Of a stretch of DNA of 46,178 nt, positions 1,021-21,284 are shown one piece after another; within the stretch, counting starts at the first letter, position 1; each line of letters opens with the position of its first letter. The notes below the pieces were generated by a model that did not search any database, was not told where the DNA came from, and saw nothing but the letters and a program-made list of their open reading frames with translations. The stretch comes from Candidatus Micrarchaeota archaeon (GTDB taxonomy: Archaea; Micrarchaeota; Micrarchaeia; Anstonellales; Bilamarchaeaceae): contig JBDRIM010000005.1 of the NCBI GenBank assembly GCA_043816005.1, positions 1 through 46,178 on the forward strand. Direction: 5' to 3'. A program made the translations under genes and the position numbers.

Positions 1021-1992
1021 ATGAAAAAATTATTACTTTTGTTGTTGTTTGTACCGCTTGTGTTTGCAGGATGGGAAGCAACAGCTGCACTAGCAATAAT
1101 TACAGCAGCAACAATACTTGCAGTATTATATATGATAGGGTTTGGATTTGATATTACCGAATTGAAAATAATGGCTAAAGAAGAATTATTCCAGCTTATT
1201 GCCCTTATGGTAATGATGGTAGTTTTTTATGGTTCAACTAATGTTTTGAATGATAGTTTAATTGATGCAATATCCACCAATGATGCTATGGCACAAAGCA
1301 CGGGCAGCATACAAGATGAAGCAAGTGCAATATTAACAGAATGGAAAGACCAGACAAACACGATCCTAAATAGTATAGTTTCATTAGACAAAAACGCATC
1401 AATAGAATCATCAAAAGCAGACCAATGTAGTTTATTTGGAATGGGTTACAGTGTGAGTGCATGTGGGGGGTTTGCCATGCTTAATCCCCCCCTGAGTATG
1501 GCTGGTGGAATAACAGGATTTGCTCTTGCTGAAGTAAACGGCATGCACCGGTTTATAGAAATTTCGAAAGAATACGCACTTACTATCCTTATGCCAATAG
1601 GAATTCTTCTGAGGACCTTCAAGATAACACGAGGTGCTGGGGGATTTTTTATTGCACTAGCAATATCAATGCATATTATGCTTCCACTTGGTATAATCTT
1701 CAATGAAATGGTTGCCAAAACATTTGATAACACAAACCCACCTGATTACACTGGGATAACAATGGGATCAATAAGTGAATGCTCGCCAGGTGATCCTGGT
1801 TCAAATGAAGGAGCAATAAAAGATGATTATATGGACCTTAGACGGGGGATCCGAGGCCAACTAAGCACGATATTATTAAGATCAACATTGGGTCCGGTAC
1901 TAGGATTATTGATTATGATGGCGTCAATTCGTGGTCTAAGTTCACTCATGGGTGCTGAAGTAGATGTAAGTTCAATATCGAGGTTTACCTGA
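1021..1992 (+). CDS. Polytopic membrane protein, putative CedA/TedA(VirB6)-like
   Basis: Signal peptide, several TM helices, motif PIGILLRTFKITRGAGGFFIALAISMHIMLP, C-terminal GPVL...LMGAEVD. Family call by eye. Confidence 0.6.
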   Translation: MKKLLLLLLFVPLVFAGWEATAALAIITAATILAVLYMIGFGFDITELKIMAKEELFQLIALMVMMVVFYGSTNVLNDSLIDAISTNDAMAQSTGSIQDEASAILTEWKDQTNTILNSIVSLDKNASIESSKADQCSLFGMGYSVSACGGFAMLNPPLSMAGGITGFALAEVNGMHRFIEISKEYALTILMPIGILLRTFKITRGAGGFFIALAISMHIMLPLGIIFNEMVAKTFDNTNPPDYTGITMGSISECSPGDPGSNEGAIKDDYMDLRRGIRGQLSTILLRSTLGPVLGLLIMMASIRGLSSLMGAEVDVSSISRFT

Positions 1993-3056
1993 TGGCAGTA
2001 GACTTAATATTGTGTGGTGCAACTTTTGATAGTTTCATGACAGGAACGATATTGCCACTTGTTGGAATTGCTGCCATGACAACATCGCTATTGATAGCAA
2101 TAAGTTTTATGGCTGGAAGAGCTCTTTCAAATCCAAAATTAATATTATGGTCAAAAACAGAAATCATACAATTGGGCATATCTTTGTTTACCATATTCAT
2201 AATAACGGCTTCAGTTACAACATTCTGCAATTTGAATGTTAGAAGCATAGAAGAAGCACTTGGATTGACACCCACTATGGGTGCAACAGTAAATATTTAT
2301 CAAGCAGCATCAGAATATCTGCGAGATGCCACTATATACACACATAACGCAATAGTTGTTTCAAGATATCAACTGGAAGCATATACTGTTCTCTCTTATT
2401 TCAGCGCATTTGAGTGTGATTGGCCAATAGGAAGAGTTGGGATAGGCTGTTGGTTTGGATGGGGAGGAACAAATATGCAGAACTTTGGTGGATATGGGGC
2501 TGCAATGGCAGCTCTAAATACATCATTTAACAGTTTGCTGATCACATATTTTACACTTATAAATCATATTTTCATTCTTCTTTTCATATACAAAGGATTT
2601 GCATTTTTCTTTTTGCCAGTTGGGATTTTGATGCGCTCTCTGCCATATCTAAGGCATTTTGGTGCAGTACTAATAGCGATTTCCATGGCATTTTTGATTG
2701 TTTATCCAGCAATGCTTGCAATTTTCAATATTATGGGAGATGTGTTACTTGATCGGCCACATTTATCTCCAGAAGATAAAGCAACTACTTTCAAAAATGC
2801 AGAAGCTTGGATGGTTGATCTTACGCAAGCAGATTTCTTGGGTATGAGTGCTGCTGGTCCAGGCACAGTTGAAGACAATTATATTGGAGGAGGAAAAGGG
2901 GATATAGGATATGCATTAATGTTTACGGCATATGCTTTCATTGCAGGTGGATTTTTTCCTTCCGTGGCATTATTAGCCACCATTGCAAGCGTATCTTACA
3001 TAGCAAGACTTTACGGTGATGAAATAGACTTAAGTAGAATAGTTCAGATGGTGTAG
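1992..3056 (+). CDS. Polytopic membrane protein, putative CedA/TedA(VirB6)-like
   Basis: TGATG overlap with the previous gene. Motif PVGILMRSLPYLRHFGAVLIAISMAFLIVYP; C-terminal FFPSV...LYGDEID. Confidence 0.6.
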   Translation: MAVDLILCGATFDSFMTGTILPLVGIAAMTTSLLIAISFMAGRALSNPKLILWSKTEIIQLGISLFTIFIITASVTTFCNLNVRSIEEALGLTPTMGATVNIYQAASEYLRDATIYTHNAIVVSRYQLEAYTVLSYFSAFECDWPIGRVGIGCWFGWGGTNMQNFGGYGAAMAALNTSFNSLLITYFTLINHIFILLFIYKGFAFFFLPVGILMRSLPYLRHFGAVLIAISMAFLIVYPAMLAIFNIMGDVLLDRPHLSPEDKATTFKNAEAWMVDLTQADFLGMSAAGPGTVEDNYIGGGKGDIGYALMFTAYAFIAGGFFPSVALLATIASVSYIARLYGDEIDLSRIVQMV

Positions 3057-3066
3057 GGGTAATAAA

Positions 3067-4131
3067 ATGGATTTGATACTAACAATACCAAGTTTTCTTC
3101 AAAACCTTGGGGTTCCAACATGGACTGGAACATGGCTCCCACTTTCAATACTAGCAGTTTTAGTTTCAGTTCTTATTCATAATATACTTCTTATGCTTGC
3201 AAAAGCATTTAGTGTCAAAGAATTAGAAAATTATGCAACATCTGAGATATTACAAGCAGCAAGCACTGGTTTTATGGCGATATCACTTGTTGTTATAGTA
3301 TCTAGTGCAATGACAGTTGCAGGTAGCACGATAACCGGATCAATGCCCTGCTTTGGCGATACAATAAATATTGAGAATGGTCCGGATGATGTAACAAATA
3401 AGGTTATGGATGATGCCTACAGAGCAATATTATGCAGAATACAAGAAAAAGCAAAATCAATGGCAACCATTCAAAGTTATATCCTTGATGCTGATGCAGG
3501 AACATCAACTTATAATAATTATTTCGTATCAAATATGGCTTTGAGTATATTTGGAATTACTTATTTTCAAGGAAGTTGGCTAGGAAGTGTATATGAAGAA
3601 ATAGAAACTCGAAGAATAGTCAACAACTTACTTACAACACTTTTGATAGGTTTGAATGCACAGATGCAACTGATAGGGTATATACGGATCAACATGCTGC
3701 ACATATTTATTCCGTTAGGAGTATTGCTGCGAAGTTTTTATTTTACACGGGGACCAGGAGCGTTTATGATAGCCCTCGGAGTTGGTTTGTATTTTATATT
3801 CCCAGTATTTTATGTGTTAATGGACCCCGGATTTGTACCTGCACCACCAGCACCTCCAAATACCGGTGGAACACCGATACAGCAATATTGTTATCCAACG
3901 ATGAGTACTGCAGTGAGTGTAGTTCAGAGCGTTAATACACAAGGCGCAACCCCTGCAGGTTCTTCTCTTAGTTTTTCACAATTAAGAAATGAACTTGGAA
4001 AAACATATATAGGATTAATACTGCATCCCTTGATAGCATTTTTCCTTACAATGGTTTTTGTAAGATACATGATGTCTATTTTAGGAGCAGATACAACAGA
4101 TATGACGAAGATGATTACAAAAGTGATATAA
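3067..4131 (+). CDS. Polytopic membrane protein, putative CedA/TedA(VirB6)-like
   Basis: Motif PLGVLLRSFYFTRGPGAFMIALGVGLYFIFP; C-terminal LHPLI...ILGADT. GGGGT RBS-like sequence upstream. Confidence 0.6.
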   Translation: MDLILTIPSFLQNLGVPTWTGTWLPLSILAVLVSVLIHNILLMLAKAFSVKELENYATSEILQAASTGFMAISLVVIVSSAMTVAGSTITGSMPCFGDTINIENGPDDVTNKVMDDAYRAILCRIQEKAKSMATIQSYILDADAGTSTYNNYFVSNMALSIFGITYFQGSWLGSVYEEIETRRIVNNLLTTLLIGLNAQMQLIGYIRINMLHIFIPLGVLLRSFYFTRGPGAFMIALGVGLYFIFPVFYVLMDPGFVPAPPAPPNTGGTPIQQYCYPTMSTAVSVVQSVNTQGATPAGSSLSFSQLRNELGKTYIGLILHPLIAFFLTMVFVRYMMSILGADTTDMTKMITKVI

Positions 4132-15348: not shown

Positions 15349-16474
15349 GCCAGAGCTTGGCCAGTATATGACATTCGAATTTAGCAAGGAAAAACAGATC
15401 CACGGCTGGTTCTGGTATAAGGAAGGTTTTGCTCCTGAAATTGTTGAATGGAGTATTAGTGAATCCAAAAAAAACAATGGGCCAAAAAAAATTCTTGATC
15501 CTTTCTGTGGGGTTGGAACAGCTTTACTTACTGCAAAAAATTGTGGAATTCAATCTATTGGTGTTGATGCCTCTTCTCTTGCAGTTTTCATATCGAAAAC
15601 CAAAACAGACGACTACGAACAAAAAGATCTTGAAGATGCCCGCGCATTTCTTGAGAAAAAACTTCAAGTTCCTACAACACGTTGGCAATTTGAGTTGTTT
15701 GATGCAAGAGCAGCATTTCCAAAGAGAAATTACAATGAAATTTTAGCATTACGAGAAGCTATTGAACAGGAAAATGAAAAAGTACGCAATCTGCTTCTTC
15801 TTGCACTTCTATCTATTTTACCGCAAGCAAGTATAGTTCTGAAAGATGGCGGCGTATTGAAAATAATGAAGAACAAAAAAGCATTGCCTGCACGTGAGAT
15901 ATTCAAAAGACGAGTAAAAAGAATGGTTAGGGATTTGGAAACGCAAAAAATAGGTCACGGCCCACAAGTTTATCTTGGAGATGCAAGAGCTATGGATATA
16001 GAAGGAGAATCAATAGATTTAGTTATCACTTCCCCACCTTATTTGAACAACATTGACTATTCAAAAATTTATGGCCTTGAACTAAGTTTACTTTCCATGA
16101 GCAAAGCAGAAGCTTCAGAAGTTAGGATGAGAGCCATAAGATCATTTATTGGAAAACAGATGGATGTTGGACAAATGCCCGAGGAAATTGGTGAGATTGG
16201 TGAAAGAATACCAATCATTGGCACATATTTCAGAGATATGGAATTGGCAATTAGCGAAATGTACCGAGTTTTGAATGAGAATGGTGAAGCACACATAATT
16301 GTTTCAAATTCGGTAATTCATGATACTCATGTTATGGTTGATGAAGTTTTCGGACAGATGGCTGAAAGGATTGGATTTAAAGAAGCAGAAATTGTTGTTG
16401 GAGCTGAAAGAATTGCTGATGTAAAACCAGCTAAAGTTAAAACAAGAGAAAGCATTGTTATTTTGAGGAAATGA
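15332..16474 (+). CDS. Orphan amino (N4-C/N6-A) DNA methyltransferase, alpha-class motif order
   Basis: ILDPFCGVGT (motif I) precedes VITSPPY (motif IV). No restriction enzyme gene adjacent. Confidence 0.8.
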   Translation: MQIVNKPELGQYMTFEFSKEKQIHGWFWYKEGFAPEIVEWSISESKKNNGPKKILDPFCGVGTALLTAKNCGIQSIGVDASSLAVFISKTKTDDYEQKDLEDARAFLEKKLQVPTTRWQFELFDARAAFPKRNYNEILALREAIEQENEKVRNLLLLALLSILPQASIVLKDGGVLKIMKNKKALPAREIFKRRVKRMVRDLETQKIGHGPQVYLGDARAMDIEGESIDLVITSPPYLNNIDYSKIYGLELSLLSMSKAEASEVRMRAIRSFIGKQMDVGQMPEEIGEIGERIPIIGTYFRDMELAISEMYRVLNENGEAHIIVSNSVIHDTHVMVDEVFGQMAERIGFKEAEIVVGAERIADVKPAKVKTRESIVILRK

Positions 16475-16478
16475 GTTC

Positions 16479-16991
16479 ATGATTCATCCATTCAAAAATA
16501 AAAAACCAAATTTTTTTGGAAATAACTTTTTGGCACCAAGTGCAGAAATTATCGGAGATGTTGAAATTGGCCAGGGGTCAAGTATTTGGTATAATGCAGT
16601 TGTTCGAGCTGATATAGGTGCGATAAAAATTGGCAATAATGTAAGTGTTCAGGATGGTTGTGTTCTTCATACTCAACAAAATATACCACTTATTATTGGG
16701 GACGATGTTGCAGTAGGGCATAATGCAGTATTGCATTCTTGCGAAATAGCAGGAAATTGTATAATAGGCATGGGAGCCATTTTACTTTCGAGATCAAAAA
16801 TCGGAAAAAACTGCATAGTTGGTGCAGGAAGCGTAATAACTGAAGGAACAGAAATTCCAGATAATTCAATTGTTATGGGAATTCCTGGGAAAGTTGTAAA
16901 ACAAATAACTGATGAACACAAAACCAGGATAAAAAGAAACATTGAAGAATATATTCGATTGAATAAAGAGTATCTAGCTGAGAAAAAATAG
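16479..16991 (+). CDS. Gamma-class carbonic anhydrase family (CaiE/YrdA/PaaY-like) hexapeptide-repeat protein
   Basis: IIGDVEIG, VRAD, VQDGCVLH, GHNAVLH metal-binding His; left-handed beta-helix repeats. Confidence 0.9.
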   Translation: MIHPFKNKKPNFFGNNFLAPSAEIIGDVEIGQGSSIWYNAVVRADIGAIKIGNNVSVQDGCVLHTQQNIPLIIGDDVAVGHNAVLHSCEIAGNCIIGMGAILLSRSKIGKNCIVGAGSVITEGTEIPDNSIVMGIPGKVVKQITDEHKTRIKRNIEEYIRLNKEYLAEKK

Positions 16992-17023
16992 TCTCTTTTT
17001 TGTTAGCTAAACTGAGGATTATT

Positions 17024-17065
17024 ATGTTAATAGGAATTGTTGGAAAACTTTTTTGGAAAGCTTAA
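17024..17065 (+). pseudogene. Relic 5' end of ychF (MLIGIVGK...GK)
   Basis: GAGGA RBS at 17014-17018, then ATG TTA ATA GGA ATT GTT GGA AAA C TTTTTT GGA AAG. Aligns codon by codon with the intact ychF start at 18236 (MLIGLCGKPSSGK). Stops at TAA 17063-17065. Confidence 0.75.
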
Positions 17066-17090
17066 TAAAATTAGGCTTGATAGGAAGGAC

Positions 17091-18233
17091 ATGAAAAGGG
17101 TTAATATTTGGGAGTTCCGATCTAGAGTTAATATACGAGTCGATGAAGAATTTTTGATACGCATCAAACGCAAGCTTTATGAAAGATATAAGACCAGAGC
17201 GAGTATTTATCGAGCTTTAAAAAGCAGAATTCACTTTAGCTCAGACACATTTAATAATTTCTTAAAAGAAAGTCACCATAGGAAATTCTTTGTTCCGTTA
17301 GAGATTTGGATTCAAGTCTGTGATGTTCTTAATGTTAGTTTGTATGACCTACAGGACAGCATAGTTGCATATAAGACCAGCGGGGGGCCAAATTTTATTT
17401 CAGAACCGATATTGCCAGTTGAGATAACCCCAGTATTTGACATGATACTTGCCCATAATATTGCAGATGGAACCGTGATAAACCCAAAAAAAGGCCGTTT
17501 GCCATATTTTGGATACAGGCAATTGGATAAGCAAATTCGAAGCTTATATATAACAAAATTGGAATCTGTATTCGGACGGATAAATTTTCCAAATAAGTAT
17601 TATTTGGTAACTACGCGACCATACTGTCCCCCAGTGCTTTCTAGTTTGTTTTTCAACGAATATAAACTGAATACAAAAAGTTTTCTCTCAAGAAGTGCCC
17701 GTATACCAAAAGAAATAATGGCCAAGAGCCATGAATACATTCTTGCAGTTCTAGTTGCATTTATCATAGACGAAGGATGGATCGATTCGACACTGATTGG
17801 AATTTCAGTAAAAAACATAGGATTGTCAAGGGATCTGCGTAACATATGTTCAAAATTAGGGTATAAAACAGCATTTACAATTAAAGGGGAATATGGGACA
17901 GTATTGATACTCAGAAATGGTATGAGGAAGTTTTTCGAAGATTACAAAAAGATAATTAGGGAGTATCCTGAGATGAGTCTTGGTGGAAAAGAAACAAAAA
18001 TTGAAAATAGTTTCAAAATATACAACCGGCCGATTTATAAGACAAAGGGAAATAAAGAGAATATATTGAACATGCTAGAAAAGGAACCATTAACGATCAA
18101 TCAAATTGCTCTGAGAATAAATATGACCAGACAGGGGGTCAGATTTCACATTCATAATTTAGAAAAGGCAAACTTAATCTCAAAAGCAGAAGTTAACAAG
18201 GAAAAAGAAATTGTGTATAAGTTCGGAGGATGA
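17091..18233 (+). CDS. Free-standing two-motif LAGLIDADG endonuclease-like protein with C-terminal winged HTH
   Basis: LPVEITPVFDMILAHNIADG and IPKEI...LVAFIIDEG motifs. C-terminal ILNMLEKEPLTINQIA...RQGVRFHIHNLEKANLI wHTH. ATG at 17091 follows AGGAAGGAC; the frame is open from 17037. Confidence 0.75.
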   Translation: MKRVNIWEFRSRVNIRVDEEFLIRIKRKLYERYKTRASIYRALKSRIHFSSDTFNNFLKESHHRKFFVPLEIWIQVCDVLNVSLYDLQDSIVAYKTSGGPNFISEPILPVEITPVFDMILAHNIADGTVINPKKGRLPYFGYRQLDKQIRSLYITKLESVFGRINFPNKYYLVTTRPYCPPVLSSLFFNEYKLNTKSFLSRSARIPKEIMAKSHEYILAVLVAFIIDEGWIDSTLIGISVKNIGLSRDLRNICSKLGYKTAFTIKGEYGTVLILRNGMRKFFEDYKKIIREYPEMSLGGKETKIENSFKIYNRPIYKTKGNKENILNMLEKEPLTINQIALRINMTRQGVRFHIHNLEKANLISKAEVNKEKEIVYKFGG

Positions 18234-18235
18234 AC

Positions 18236-19423
18236 ATGTTAATTGGTTTGTGTGGCAAACCCAGTAGTGGCAAATCAACCTTTTTCATGGCAGCAACTTC
18301 AGTGCCTGTTGAACGGTCATCAAGACCATTCACTACAATAAAACCGAATAGAGCAGTCGCTTATGTTGAAGTTGAATGTGTGGATAAAGAATTTGATAAA
18401 CAATGCAATCCACGATCAGGTTTCTGCGTAAATGCACGAAGATTTGTACCTGTTGAACTTCTTGATGTTGCTGGTTTAGTGCCTGGTGCACATGAGGGGA
18501 AGGGTCTTGGAAATAAATTTCTAGACGATCTTAGGCAGGCAGATGTTCTTGTTCATATTGTTGATGCAAGCGGCTCTACAAATGAAACAGGAGAACGAGT
18601 ACCAGTTGGAAGTTATGACCCGTGTAATGATGTAACGTTTTTGGAACAAGAATTAGATTATTGGATTAAGGGAATTTTAGATAATAATTGGCAGAAATTA
18701 GTTCGAGAAGCAAAATTAAACAAAAAAAATGAAGAGATGCTAACAACCCAATTTAGTGGTCTGGGCATGACAAAAGATGTTATAGTAAAAGTTTTGAAAG
18801 AATTGAGATTAGAAGAAAAAAACCTTGCAGACTGGACAGAAGAGGAAAGATTAGAGGTATGTAAAAAAATAAGGCATATAGGAAAACCAATAATTATTGC
18901 AGCAAATAAATGCGATCTTTCAACAGGTTGGGACAATTATCAAAAATTAAAGAAAGAGTTTCCAGAATATGTTGTTATTCCATGTTCAGCTGAGGCAGAA
19001 ATAACATTAAAAGGAGCTACAAAAGCTAATTTTATCGAATATATTCCAGGGGATAAGACTTTTACAATTAAAGCAGAATTAAATCAAGATCAGCAAAAAG
19101 CAATGGACATAATGAAGCTTGTTTGTGATAAATATGAAGGAACTGGAGTTCAAAAATGTTTGAATGCTGCAGTATTTGACTTTTTACATTATATTGCAAT
19201 TTTCCCAGGTGGCGGCAATCTTATTGACAGCCAAGGAAGGTTATTACCAGACTGTTTCCTTATGCCACATACAACAAGAGCAATTGATTTTGCTTTCAAA
19301 TTACATTCAGACATTGGAAATGGTTTTATCAAAGCAATTGATTACAAAACAAAACAAGCAGTTGGGAAGGAACACACTTTGAAGCATAGGGATGTAATAG
19401 AAATTGTTTTCAAAAAGCCTTGA
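18236..19423 (+). CDS. ychF: Archaeal YchF/OLA1 Obg-family translation-associated NTPase
   Basis: GKPSSGKST, RPFTTIKPN, DVAGLVPGAHEGKGLGNKFLDDLRQAD, ANKCD, C-terminal TGS domain. GGAGG RBS lies in the last codons of the upstream gene. Confidence 0.93.
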   Translation: MLIGLCGKPSSGKSTFFMAATSVPVERSSRPFTTIKPNRAVAYVEVECVDKEFDKQCNPRSGFCVNARRFVPVELLDVAGLVPGAHEGKGLGNKFLDDLRQADVLVHIVDASGSTNETGERVPVGSYDPCNDVTFLEQELDYWIKGILDNNWQKLVREAKLNKKNEEMLTTQFSGLGMTKDVIVKVLKELRLEEKNLADWTEEERLEVCKKIRHIGKPIIIAANKCDLSTGWDNYQKLKKEFPEYVVIPCSAEAEITLKGATKANFIEYIPGDKTFTIKAELNQDQQKAMDIMKLVCDKYEGTGVQKCLNAAVFDFLHYIAIFPGGGNLIDSQGRLLPDCFLMPHTTRAIDFAFKLHSDIGNGFIKAIDYKTKQAVGKEHTLKHRDVIEIVFKKP

Positions 19424-19690
19424 ACGTCCAATTTATCGTCGCTACGATAAATTGACCACAAGACGATGCGTCGTTTTGTAGGTCGAAACGTTCAAGATAC
19501 TCGAAAACTTCGTTTTTCAAGAAACCCGAGGTTGTCAAAATTTCGCGAAGTAAAAATTAGCATGCCAGTTTTTTTGGTTCTTTTTTTCCTAAAAAAAGAA
19601 CAACCAGTCCCCTCCACCACTCATACGCTTGTCAAGAACGTTGCAACGTTCTTGACTGCCATTGTTGCTTTGCAACAATAGCATGGCAAT
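19419..19690. repeat. Cluster of nested short palindromic hairpins
   Basis: CTTGAACGT/ACGTTCAAG (19419-19427/19488-19496) encloses CAATTTATCGT-cgct-ACGATAAATTG. Perfect 26-bp palindrome at 19631-19656. ATTGTTGC-ttt-GCAACAAT at 19661-19679. Confidence 0.8.
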
Positions 19691-19763
19691 ATAGTTTAGG
19701 CTTATCATCGTGGTTTCGGATCATCCTAACTCAATTACTACGAATAGATTTATTATTCAGACA

Positions 19764-21284
19764 CTATCTTTGGTAAGGTTTAATCACTGGATAAACTCTC
19801 TTAACTATTTTTGGCAAGCACATTGCATGCAAACAGCCATAATTACATTTTTGGATTAGATTTTTAGTTACTGAACTAGAACAAACTGAATTAAAACTGC
19901 CAGGATTTTTACAAACGTAAGTAGCATAATTTTTGTAAACACCGCCATCCTTACAATAGGCATAATTGAAAAATTGATTTTTTCCGCAATCAGAATCTTC
20001 TGTACATGCTGGCTTGAAACAACTTCCATCATAACAACCAACTTCGCATGTTTGTTTTAATTCAGAGACAAGAGTTGAAGTGCATGAAGCTTGCAATGTT
20101 CCAGGATTGGAACATGAATATTTTTTCATATTTTGGAAAACAGAATCCCCTGAACAAAATAAATCAACATATTCAGTCGTTCCGCAATCAGAATCATCGA
20201 AACAAACAACTGATTTGCATTCGGCATTTTCACAAAGTTCTTTTGCTGAACAGTCTGTTACTAATTTATTTGAAATTAATTCTGAACATGCTGCGTTTAC
20301 TGTACCAGCATTGTTGCAAGTAAATGTGTTATACTGCTGAAAAACATCTTCATTATTGCATGATGCCTGGCCTATAAAGCCGTCTGAACCGCATTCTGCA
20401 TCAGAATAACAACTAGGTTGAACTAAAGGCAATGAATGAACCATAAACCACTGCCATTGTAGTATGTTCTTGGATTTGTCCCAATTATGCCCACCAGCAT
20501 CTGAATCAATTAATTGATTTGCATAGCCATGTGCAGTTAATTCCGATTGTAATGTTTTACTCCAGGAATATGAAACGGTTTCGTCGTTTTTCCCATGTAT
20601 TAGCAAGCCAGGAACCTCATATGCAGGATCTAGATTAGCATTTCTTGGTTCAATTGGAAAATAATAACAGAAAATAACATAACAATATTTTACTACACCA
20701 CCCGAATGTTCTGCAAATGCAGTTACGTTATCAGGGATTGCCACAGAAGCATAATATGCGAACAAAGCACCATAAGAATGTCCTGTGAAAAAAATATGAT
20801 TCTCTGAAACTTTATATGTTGAGGTTAGTTCATTCATGATATTTTTTACAAATTCAATATCCTGAGAAGTATACCTATCATCTGCTTGTAGATGTGCAAT
20901 ATCCCATCTAATGTAGGTCTGACTACCTGAAAAACCAGTAACATCATAACCAGGAATAGAGATAGGACCAAGAACGAAATCCTTTGGTGGTAAATCTTTT
21001 AATGAATCAGGAAAAACAACTATAAAACCTTCTTGATCAGCTAATTCCTGCCAACCATATGAATCTGCTGCAGCCTGAGCATTTCCACCCATTCCATGGA
21101 ACATAAATACAACAGGATAGAGGGTATTTGGATCATAATTTGTTGGTAAATAGACTAGATATGTTCTCTGTTTGGTTATATTGTCAAATGTTACATCAGT
21201 TGTTTTTGGTAACAAATTGCCGGCAAAAACAAAAGGGATCGAAATAACTAATAAAAAAATTAAACACTTAATAGTAGTATTCAT
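19764..21284 (-). CDS. Secreted alpha/beta-hydrolase (LpqC/PHB-depolymerase-like esterase) with three C-terminal Cys-rich repeats
   Basis: Signal peptide; FHGMGG; GHSYG nucleophile elbow; HGKND; GGHNW. Three repeats of C..D.(E/D)CG...C....V......C.N(A/P)G....C. Confidence 0.85.
   Translation of the reverse strand: MNTTIKCLIFLLVISIPFVFAGNLLPKTTDVTFDNITKQRTYLVYLPTNYDPNTLYPVVFMFHGMGGNAQAAADSYGWQELADQEGFIVVFPDSLKDLPPKDFVLGPISIPGYDVTGFSGSQTYIRWDIAHLQADDRYTSQDIEFVKNIMNELTSTYKVSENHIFFTGHSYGALFAYYASVAIPDNVTAFAEHSGGVVKYCYVIFCYYFPIEPRNANLDPAYEVPGLLIHGKNDETVSYSWSKTLQSELTAHGYANQLIDSDAGGHNWDKSKNILQWQWFMVHSLPLVQPSCYSDAECGSDGFIGQASCNNEDVFQQYNTFTCNNAGTVNAACSELISNKLVTDCSAKELCENAECKSVVCFDDSDCGTTEYVDLFCSGDSVFQNMKKYSCSNPGTLQASCTSTLVSELKQTCEVGCYDGSCFKPACTEDSDCGKNQFFNYAYCKDGGVYKNYATYVCKNPGSFNSVCSSSVTKNLIQKCNYGCLHAMCLPKIVKRVYPVIKPYQR

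Follow-up and report, generated by a model that had tools for sequence, protein, structure and literature searches.

Homing endonucleases are thought to need an intron or an intein in order to sit inside essential genes; LAGLIDADG genes are known in archaeal rRNA introns, and inteins favour P-loop codons. Endonuclease genes outside introns and inteins are carried by T4-type phages (SegB, MobE and, as a further example, SegF), and the LAGLIDADG scaffold also occurs, followed by a C-terminal helix-turn-helix, in WhiA, a vertically inherited bacterial transcription factor that is not known to retain the catalytic acidic residues. In fungal mitochondria, the mORF 'gene hybrids' have been described, in which a free-standing endonuclease open reading frame (ORF) brings a foreign C-terminus and the native one is left as a relic (PMC3630166; examples are atp6 of Allomyces macrogynus, atp6, atp9, cox2 and nad3 of Glomus, atp9 of Rhizopus and cox2 of Mortierella), and a review reports an N-terminal duplication through intron mobility in Tremella (PMC8393795). 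Here we describe a related arrangement in a 46,178-nucleotide stretch of DNA from Candidatus Micrarchaeota archaeon (assembly GCA_043816005.1, contig JBDRIM010000005.1, forward strand, positions 1-46,178; hereafter the window), in which a LAGLIDADG endonuclease gene lies between a short remnant of the start of a YchF-related GTPase gene and a complete, differently spelled start of that gene. With a probability of roughly 0.8, we read this locus as a free-standing homing-endonuclease cassette of about 1.2 kb, inserted at codon 8/9 of the GTPase gene and replacing its 5' end.

The window cassette shares with the fungal elements a free-standing LAGLIDADG ORF (GIY-YIG also occurs in fungi) inside a conserved coding region, with no intron or intein; a foreign, diverged terminus that is brought along, so that the gene stays whole; and a native relic that resembles close relatives, a pattern read as horizontal transfer by homing. 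It differs in replacing the 5' end, whereas the fungal elements replace the 3' end, often in phase with the host gene, and it must therefore also supply a ribosome-binding site (RBS) and a start codon. It differs as well in its own promoter-like block, in an endonuclease with an extra N-terminal domain and a C-terminal winged helix, in a target inside P-loop codons, and in residing in an archaeal (DPANN) chromosome rather than in an organelle. The T4-type free-standing genes also lie outside any intron or intein, and in intronless homing endonuclease-free genomes are cut near the insertion point and flanking markers are co-converted; unlike the window cassette, the phage genes are described as GIY-YIG or HNH and intergenic, splitting no coding region and supplying no replacement end, and as acting in co-infection. 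The Tremella case likewise involves a mobile element, whose associated gene conversion duplicates an N-terminal gene segment and exchanges it in part, but the vehicle is a mobile mitochondrial intron and not an intron-less cassette in an archaeal chromosome. In a search of titles and abstracts, with most subscription journals outside its coverage, we found no such element in archaea or at a YchF-type gene. The design is thus far described mainly in fungal mitochondria; new here is a form that replaces the 5' end and targets the P-loop in archaeal chromosomes, and that would give homing endonucleases a third route in these chromosomes: replacing the gene start.

A displaced GTPase start and its replacement

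The features of the locus are given below (positions in the window, strand, description).

17014..17018, plus strand: GAGGA, resembling a Shine-Dalgarno site and belonging to the original GTPase start, since displaced; 5 nt separate it from the ATG at 17024 (direct reading)
17024..17048, plus strand: stub, GTPase codons 1-8 (MLIGIVGK) plus 1 base, ATG TTA ATA GGA ATT GTT GGA AAA C
17049..17090, plus strand: left end of the insert, with a 6-nt T run, GGAAAG (17055-17060) and TTAATAAA (17062-17069)
17091..18233, plus strand: free-standing endonuclease gene, 380 aa, with its own ATG and ending TTC GGA GGA TGA (18222-18233)
18225..18230, plus strand: GGAGGA within the final endonuclease codons, putative RBS of the live GTPase start (direct reading)
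18236..18268, plus strand: replacement, re-spelled GTPase 5' end, codons 1-11, MLIGLCGKPSS
18236..19423, plus strand: host gene, YchF-related putative GTPase (NCBIfam NF007171 and Pfam domains)
17049..18260, plus strand: whole insert, 1212 nt, as compared with the empty alleles L004, L008 and L011
16479..16991, plus strand: gamma-carbonic-anhydrase-like hexapeptide-repeat gene on the left flank (Pfam Hexapep, E 2.4e-18)

The cassette contains a promoter-like block, the endonuclease gene, an RBS in the last codons of that gene and replacement codons 1-8; the re-spelled tract continues through about codon 11, and the original start persists upstream as a dead stub. An earlier note on this DNA had read from the letters a GAGGA ahead of an MLIGIVGK stub, an endonuclease gene whose GGAGGA TGA precedes an intact GTPase start, and two copies of that start alike in protein and different in spelling, and direct reading bears out each of these: the GAGGA stands at 17014, GGAGGA TGA occupies 18225-18233, and the live start (ATG TTA ATT GGT TTG TGT GGC AAA CCC AGT AGT GGC AAA) begins at 18236, two bases past the endonuclease stop. 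The two copies are identical at 18 of 25 bases and both read MLIG[I/L][V/C]GK. The further description of the stub as GK..GK up to the P-loop lysine with 2 nt missing stands only in part: the stub itself is there, its K8 is not the Walker A lysine (K13), and a 2-nt gap is one possibility only. The Walker A motif, G-x4-G-K-S, occupies codons 7-14, which puts the break at codon 8/9 inside the motif yet ahead of K13. Relative to the empty alleles the insert could equally well be drawn as 17024-18235, because its final 25 nt repeat the 25 nt that precede it.

The letters that follow the stub are TTTTTT GGAAAG CTTAATAAA, and the stub, continued in frame, forms a 13-codon mini-ORF (MLIGIVGKLFWKA) with its stop at 17063-17065. 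The block of GGAAAG and TTAATAAA finishes 21 nt upstream of the endonuclease ATG at 17091. We predict that this block (17055-17069) is a promoter of the endonuclease gene of the archaeal B recognition element (BRE)/TATA type, by comparison with the archaeal consensus. In the compared loci, the second GGAAAG follows the first at a fixed distance of 7 nt and abuts the TATA-like box, and it may therefore be promoter sequence.

The host gene matches the NCBIfam model NF007171, 'YchF-related putative GTPase', with 522.9 bits (cut-off 387), the model for true YchF stays under its cut-off, and the Pfam domains are MMR_HSR1, YGR210-like G4 and TGS. For the left-flank gene (16479..16991), the top NCBIfam match is gamma carbonic anhydrase, at 185 bits under a 250-bit cut-off.

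A match of only eight codons, in a metagenome-assembled genome (MAG) of 1.26 Mb in 85 contigs with an estimated contamination of 5.5%, might be put down to chance similarity or to a chimeric assembly. Against this, the loose pattern M[LIV][IVL]G[ILV][VC]GK occurs in the six-frame translation of the 1.26-Mb genome at exactly two places, the stub and the gene, and in none of five shuffled genomes, and the stub match is therefore real; the same anatomy recurs in more than 20 independent assemblies; and the left junction is crossed with 0 differences by DNA contigs from runs of two studies (record 9 of run X2, covering 16799-17247, and record 20 of run X3, covering 16621-17097). We give chance or artefact virtually no credence.

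The endonuclease and the question of splicing

In the 380-aa protein, an N-terminal domain is followed by a LAGLIDADG core with two motifs and, at residues 323-367, by a C-terminal winged helix-turn-helix of the ArsR type (Pfam HTH_20, E 1.5e-7). In an alignment of 25 sequences (the window protein plus 24 homologues), D126 and G127 of motif 1 (AHNIADG) and D227 of motif 2 (AFIIDEG) are invariant, and E228 is present in at least 90%. An AlphaFold2 model built from the homologue alignment (pLDDT 89.3, pTM 0.81) contains the alpha-beta-beta-alpha-beta-beta-alpha fold twice, as its Foldseek matches also indicate; these reach probability 1.00 to PI-TkoII (2cw7, E 9e-8), the TliVMA intein endonuclease, I-DmoI (TM 0.56-0.65, normalised to the target) and I-Tsp061I, with PI-SceI, PI-PfuI and WhiA (8dy9_I, E 9.6e-4; 8dy7_I) as further matches. 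Searched against Pfam at E<=10, the window protein matches helix-turn-helix families only and no LAGLIDADG model, and against PDB sequences it matches nothing below E 0.1; the model LAGLIDADG_3 (PF14528) is matched by 7 of the 25 family members (best E 1.5e-6). We assign the window protein to LAGLIDADG because of its fold, its conserved motifs and these seven homologues, and the gene is, as had been noted from the sequence, of LAGLIDADG and winged-helix type, with the window protein itself lacking a LAGLIDADG match in Pfam. The gene is single-copy in the window genome, and a database search returned 142 homologues, nearly all of 378-387 aa. A translational fusion of stub and endonuclease was considered and rejected: only in the window and G003 does the frame stay open upstream of the endonuclease ORF, and most homologues start at a conserved M-x-E-x-N-I-W.

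The archaeal intron and intein enzymes (I-DmoI, I-Tsp061I, PI-TkoII, PI-PfuI and TliVMA) resemble the window protein in fold, in carrying both motifs on a single chain, in having archaeal hosts and in targeting conserved essential genes. Unlike them, the window endonuclease has no splicing vehicle: its ORF has its own ATG and TGA, lies in a frame other than that of the host gene and of the stub, shows no intron signal and is followed by a complete GTPase start, none of which is the anatomy of an intein.

Were the insert instead removed from RNA, through a bulge-helix-bulge or by self-splicing, the stub would be exon 1 and the downstream duplicate would be dispensable, which would explain why, in loci L034, L035, L038 and L045 (described below), the downstream start and the GTPase body are in different frames. 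Stubs that retain the ATG and the frame in most loci and vary mainly at third positions would suit such an element, as would I-DmoI and I-Tsp061I among the fold matches. However, no Rfam match was found at E<=1 across 16400-19600, and junction pairings resembling a bulge-helix-bulge occur at chance frequency and in non-homologous places in 11 loci. A Shine-Dalgarno-like site and a start codon precede the live copy in 21 of 28 loci, and the stub is decayed or startless in L044, L045, L052, L059 and L072, with the GTPase ORF open in L044, L045 and L052 (L059 and L072 end at a contig end). L072 combines a dead stub with a frameshifted downstream start, a situation that splicing cannot rescue. These observations make an intron-like element very improbable, and the proposal of an insertion that needs no splicing survives the Rfam search, the bulge-helix-bulge scan and the inspection of start and stop, in which no intron or intein element was detected. 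The strongest bulge-helix-bulge match in the window (outer helix 8 bp, inner helix 4 bp) was rejected as a candidate, being absent from L033 and L071 and giving no sensible product.

Distribution and probable movement of the cassette

The GTPase gene is present in 38 of 41 related genomes and the endonuclease gene in 3 of the same relatives, one of them with a weak paralogue. Within the genus, four of 40 genomes have an endonuclease match at E<=1e-10 (G000, G003, G042, where it has internal stops, and G047, where it is a distant paralogue), and the gene proper occurs in three of the 40, one copy being broken; in the whole order, 4 of 176 genomes have it at E<=1e-30. Among 30 GTPase loci, the endonuclease precedes the GTPase only in the window and in G003. 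Empty alleles, predicted to have the gamma-carbonic-anhydrase gene followed by an uninterrupted GTPase start, do exist within the genus: in L008 and L011 the carbonic-anhydrase-like gene comes directly before MLIGIVGKPSTGKS, spelled ATG CTN ATH GGN ATH GTN GGN AAR CCN TCG ACN GGC AAA, and these two and L004 were read base by base. The site is therefore polymorphic for presence and absence of the insert, at one precise position among close relatives, and the endonuclease is sporadic and not vertically fixed, as had been anticipated. None of the 27 endonuclease-free loci has a stub upstream of the gene (1500 nt examined in most; less in L010, L013, L022, L023 and L025). In G003 the stub and junction are the same as in the window (ATG CTA ATC GGA ATA GTT GGA AAA C, followed by TTTTTTGAAAAGCTTAATAAAG), and the 120 nt upstream bear no likeness to those of the window. 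In G042 (locus L037) the endonuclease copy is broken by a frameshift and stops, with the GTPase and its re-spelled start intact, a degenerating copy such as a homing cycle would leave.

The replacement 5' end groups with other endonuclease-bearing alleles and not with the closest relative of the host. Live codons 1-11 of the window share 30 of 33 nt with those of G003, a bearer, versus 20 of 33 with those of G023, the closest empty allele, whose GTPase is 93% identical in protein; over the following 567 nt the order is reversed (384 of 567 with G003, 454 of 567 with G023), and Fisher tests of codons 1-11 against the rest of the gene give p values of 0.003 and 0.014. Donor-like sequence thus lies beside the insert as a co-conversion tract would, here in the GTPase and again in the thymidylate kinase of G047 (below). 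Relative to G023, the stub agrees at 22 of 25 bases and the live copy at 18 of 25, the combination of host-like relic and foreign terminus by which the fungal hybrids are recognized. Locus L071 encodes an identical MLIGLCGKPSSGK, with a GTPase only 63% identical overall. Across 19 loci, codon 4 is GGA in about 15 stubs and GGT in about 13 live copies, codon 5 is TTG in about 14-15 live copies, and codon 7 has a purine (A or G) in third position in stubs and a pyrimidine (C or T) in live copies, all of these counts being approximate because four rows were read in the wrong register. From the 30/33 versus 20/33 split, the match in L071 and the synonymous differences, we conclude that the replacement start belongs to the cassette. 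In its letters the stub looks like the original start of the host, and left-flank co-conversion probably also shapes it.

In the endonuclease-free locus L015 (G010), the first 66 nt of the GTPase gene share an unusual segment (MLIGLVGKPS.GKSTCFQALTS) with L037, including the spellings TTG at codon 5 and AGT at codon 10; the two are not sisters in the tree, and the segment may have been left behind by an earlier conversion or by loss of the cassette.

The endonuclease and host-gene trees conflict. Within the part of the GTPase tree formed by the genus, the three bearers stand apart, each beside endonuclease-free rows (the window pairs with L004 at support 100, L037 with L010 at support 94). The GTPase data reject a clade comprising the hosts of one well-supported endonuclease clade (log-likelihood difference 121, approximately unbiased [AU] test p 1.9e-6), and the endonuclease data reject a well-supported GTPase clade (log-likelihood difference 164, AU p 6e-9). 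Among the three closest bearers, nonsynonymous divergence (dN) is lower for the endonuclease (0.17-0.21) than for the GTPase (0.20-0.31) in the same genome pairs, and the ratio of nonsynonymous to synonymous divergence (dN/dS) of the endonuclease is about 0.1, in the single pair with an estimable dS. The tree conflict, the low dN and the broken copy of G042 fit a homing cycle of invasion, decay and loss. The GTPases of the window genus group with those of cassette-bearing genomes of Pacearchaeota/Woesearchaeota type, and not with those of seven of the eight sampled families of their own order; this grouping has a support of only 85 by SH-aLRT, and transfer of a larger part of the GTPase gene, which it might reflect, is a lead and not a finding.

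A scan of one genome per species yielded 32 loci in DPANN archaea, with records labelled Pacearchaeota, Woesearchaeota, Nanoarchaeota, Micrarchaeota, Aenigmarchaeota and Iainarchaeum. The GTPase gene adjoins the endonuclease in 30 of the 32, the remaining two being cut by contig ends; it lies just downstream on the same strand in 25, at 313 nt downstream in one and head to head in four Aenigmarchaeota, and it is also the neighbour in six of six metagenome loci. A stub, intact or decayed, is found in 21 of the 32 genome loci and in all six metagenome loci, so that the MLIGIVGK-type match is not peculiar to the window. In 17 pattern-matched loci, the window included, the stub lies 63-69 nt before the endonuclease ATG and is followed by 7 nt of spacer with freely variable letters, then by the conserved GRAAAR and a TATA-like box, and the position of this block is conserved across loci. 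In 21 of 28 loci the live GTPase start has a Shine-Dalgarno-like 4-mer 3-12 nt upstream, usually made from the last endonuclease codons (...TAT GGA GTT TAA). Stubs are decayed, with the ATG lost or with replacements or stops, in L044, L045, L046, L047, L052, L059 and L072; stub ages evidently differ among loci. The endonuclease copy is intact in 30 of the 32 loci, with one pseudogene and one copy cut by a contig end.

Two groups of loci depart from this pattern. In L060, L061, L062 and L064 (Aenigmarchaeota, at about 2400-2500), an endonuclease of 453-466 aa stands head to head with the GTPase gene, 55-95 nt apart and without a stub, and GGAAAAC-N7-TGTAAAG-TATA is still found ahead of it, similar to the left junction of the window. 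In the stubless loci L036, L054, L055 and L058 (with a variant in L057 and L053), a GC-rich, partly palindromic motif, CACTGGACAYG...GC, stands in otherwise AT-rich DNA just before the TATA-like box, 30-60 nt ahead of the endonuclease ATG; it could be an operator, a hairpin or another relic.

The strict adjacency to the GTPase across several DPANN phyla, the uniform length of about 380 aa among the 142 homologues, the purifying selection, the ArsR-type winged helix and the WhiA fold match (8dy9_I) would also suit a domesticated, WhiA-like regulator or other helper of the GTPase gene, inherited vertically and often lost, with the stub as the relic of one ancient insertion; the stub adjoins the promoter-like block, where autoregulatory binding might take place. 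The likeness to WhiA extends to the LAGLIDADG scaffold followed by a C-terminal helix-turn-helix, but unlike WhiA the window family keeps its catalytic acidic residues (D126 and E228), is sporadic (3 of 40 and 4 of 176 genomes, against 38 of 41 for the GTPase) and has a tree that disagrees with that of its host gene. Foreign 5' tracts in both the GTPase and the kinase, and a paralogue with the same anatomy at another gene, also speak against a helper, and the stubs vary mostly at third codon positions, unlike a single ancient dead relic. We consider a domesticated partner unlikely, at around one chance in ten in our judgement worded loosely; a side role of the endonuclease in regulating its own promoter beside the stub is possible.

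Under the favoured interpretation of a homing cassette, the endonuclease would cut endonuclease-free alleles around codons 5-11, and the break would be repaired from a bearer allele, with the stub and upstream DNA serving as left homology and the GTPase body as right homology. Repair would copy the cassette and co-convert adjacent codons, and the re-spelling of about 10 of about 24 positions around the site would protect the live copy from cutting. The GTPase would be translated from the Shine-Dalgarno site and ATG of the cassette, probably on a bicistronic transcript with the endonuclease, and no RNA or protein splicing would be needed.

Several points weigh against this interpretation. We infer the cleavage of the empty site, the immunity of the live copy, the promoter and the co-transcription from sequence. 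The foreign tract in the window is only 33 nt long, and its p values (0.003 and 0.014) are modest. The groups compared in the AU tests were named after both trees had been seen, and the trees were quick ones. The genomes of the genus are 53-94% complete, so that absence of a gene from a MAG is unproven. Mostly intact copies under purifying selection, strictly linked to one gene across phyla, would also fit a domesticated partner. The stubs are more uniform than the N-termini of the GTPases of endonuclease-free genomes, and a preference for particular target sites or left-flank co-conversion is therefore needed as an explanation. Finally, the DNA contigs of runs X1-X4 leave the right junction uncovered (18096-18357 is almost bare), and among them we found no joint that skips the insert and no endonuclease-free variant of the same population. 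A look-up of RNA runs for 16480-19420 found none that covers the locus.

The family, with its 38 or more loci, its empty alleles, one copy in decay and a further target gene, forms a well-sampled natural system, suited to the study of cassette origin, target immunity, hybrid genes and the movement of gene ends among DPANN lineages, and a source of new single-chain LAGLIDADG enzymes with a predictable target (the Walker A codons).

A second target gene, out-of-frame starts and flanking observations

The paralogue in G047 is 27% identical to the window endonuclease (E 1e-12), keeps both motifs and lies directly ahead of a thymidylate kinase gene (locus L068, contig C70 of G047):

1225-1300: stub of the kinase gene
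1297-2394: endonuclease paralogue
2385-2966: thymidylate kinase

In close relatives nothing interrupts the kinase gene, which begins MLVVFEGIDGCGKET. G047 has the same upstream flank, then a decayed kinase start (...FELDG-NIELL...) that is in frame with the endonuclease ORF, the endonuclease ORF itself and a live kinase that opens with MEMTNKLIVFEGLDGSGKTV. Over its first 90 nt, this kinase gene is identical to those of four close relatives at 53-58 of 90 positions, and over the remaining 471 nt at 403-431 of 471. The kinase locus repeats the anatomy of the GTPase locus, once more at P-loop codons, and its foreign tract is sharper; it lends support to the suggestion in the earlier note that other conserved genes are invaded in the same way. 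The paralogue was found in one of 401 genomes of the class, and the case for a second target therefore rests on one locus. Its C-terminus gave no winged-helix match and a weak match, below the cut-off, to a transcriptional-regulator C-terminal domain.

A distant paralogue of 426 aa (E 1e-12 to the window endonuclease) lies at 574-1854 on the minus strand of L070 (contig C70 of G027), head to head with an RtcB gene split into two ORFs (1910-3366, plus strand); no stub of the downstream gene was seen there.

In some members of one endonuclease clade, the replacement start and the body of the GTPase gene are in different frames, at these places:

L034: 3649-3680
L045: 3647-3675
L035, L038, L072 and L073-L076: the homologous place

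In L034, L035, L038 and L072 a single additional base, C, separates codons 6 and 7 of the live copy, as in ATG CTT ATC GGT TTA GTT C GGA AAA CCT; L073-L076 are of the same type as L034 in four more assemblies, and L045 has two extra bases (TA) at the same place. The feature is conserved across several species and at least eight assemblies. The ORF of the GTPase body is open for about 385 codons (L072 ends at a contig end after 42 GTPase residues), and in the frameshift loci no in-frame start was found ahead of the P-loop. The in-frame stops are TAG in L034 and L035 and TAA in L038, with three stops in L072; read-through, considered as a candidate, was rejected as unlikely because the stops are of different kinds. 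The out-of-frame types are confined to one endonuclease clade (5 of its 8 members with known downstream sequence, versus 0 of 24 outside), and the GTPases of these loci are scattered in the host tree; the start therefore travels with the cassette. The codon read in the zero frame at the insertion is CGG, a rare one in the frameshift loci (1-2 of about 50-80 arginine codons). Our guess, from these letters, is that a programmed +1 frameshift might occur at the insertion, which makes the clade a candidate case of programmed frameshifting in archaea. For annotation, eight-codon stubs and out-of-frame starts explain GTPase genes that are miscalled or appear 'truncated' in MAGs.

A wider and distinctly speculative proposal, which we think more probably wrong than right, is that DPANN archaea harbour a superfamily of LAGLIDADG and winged-helix cassettes that settle at the 5' P-loop codons of essential NTPase genes, the YchF-related GTPase and thymidylate kinase being the two examples observed, and that spread without splicing and so move gene starts between lineages, and that the conserved 1-nt insertion of one clade (NTT-C-GGN) destroys the target and is read by a +1 frameshift at the rare CGG. 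If this were true, immunity to a homing endonuclease would have been bought by translational recoding.

Downstream of the GTPase stop, three perfect hairpins with arms of 11-13 nt lie within 270 nt (19429-19454, 19577-19601 and 19631-19656). A search for tRNAs in 19300-19900 found none, and an Rfam search up to 19600 gave no match. Contig depth suggests a short element that is repeated or widely shared: it is 19-41 over 19537-19667 in runs X3 and X4, compared with about 2-5 nearby.

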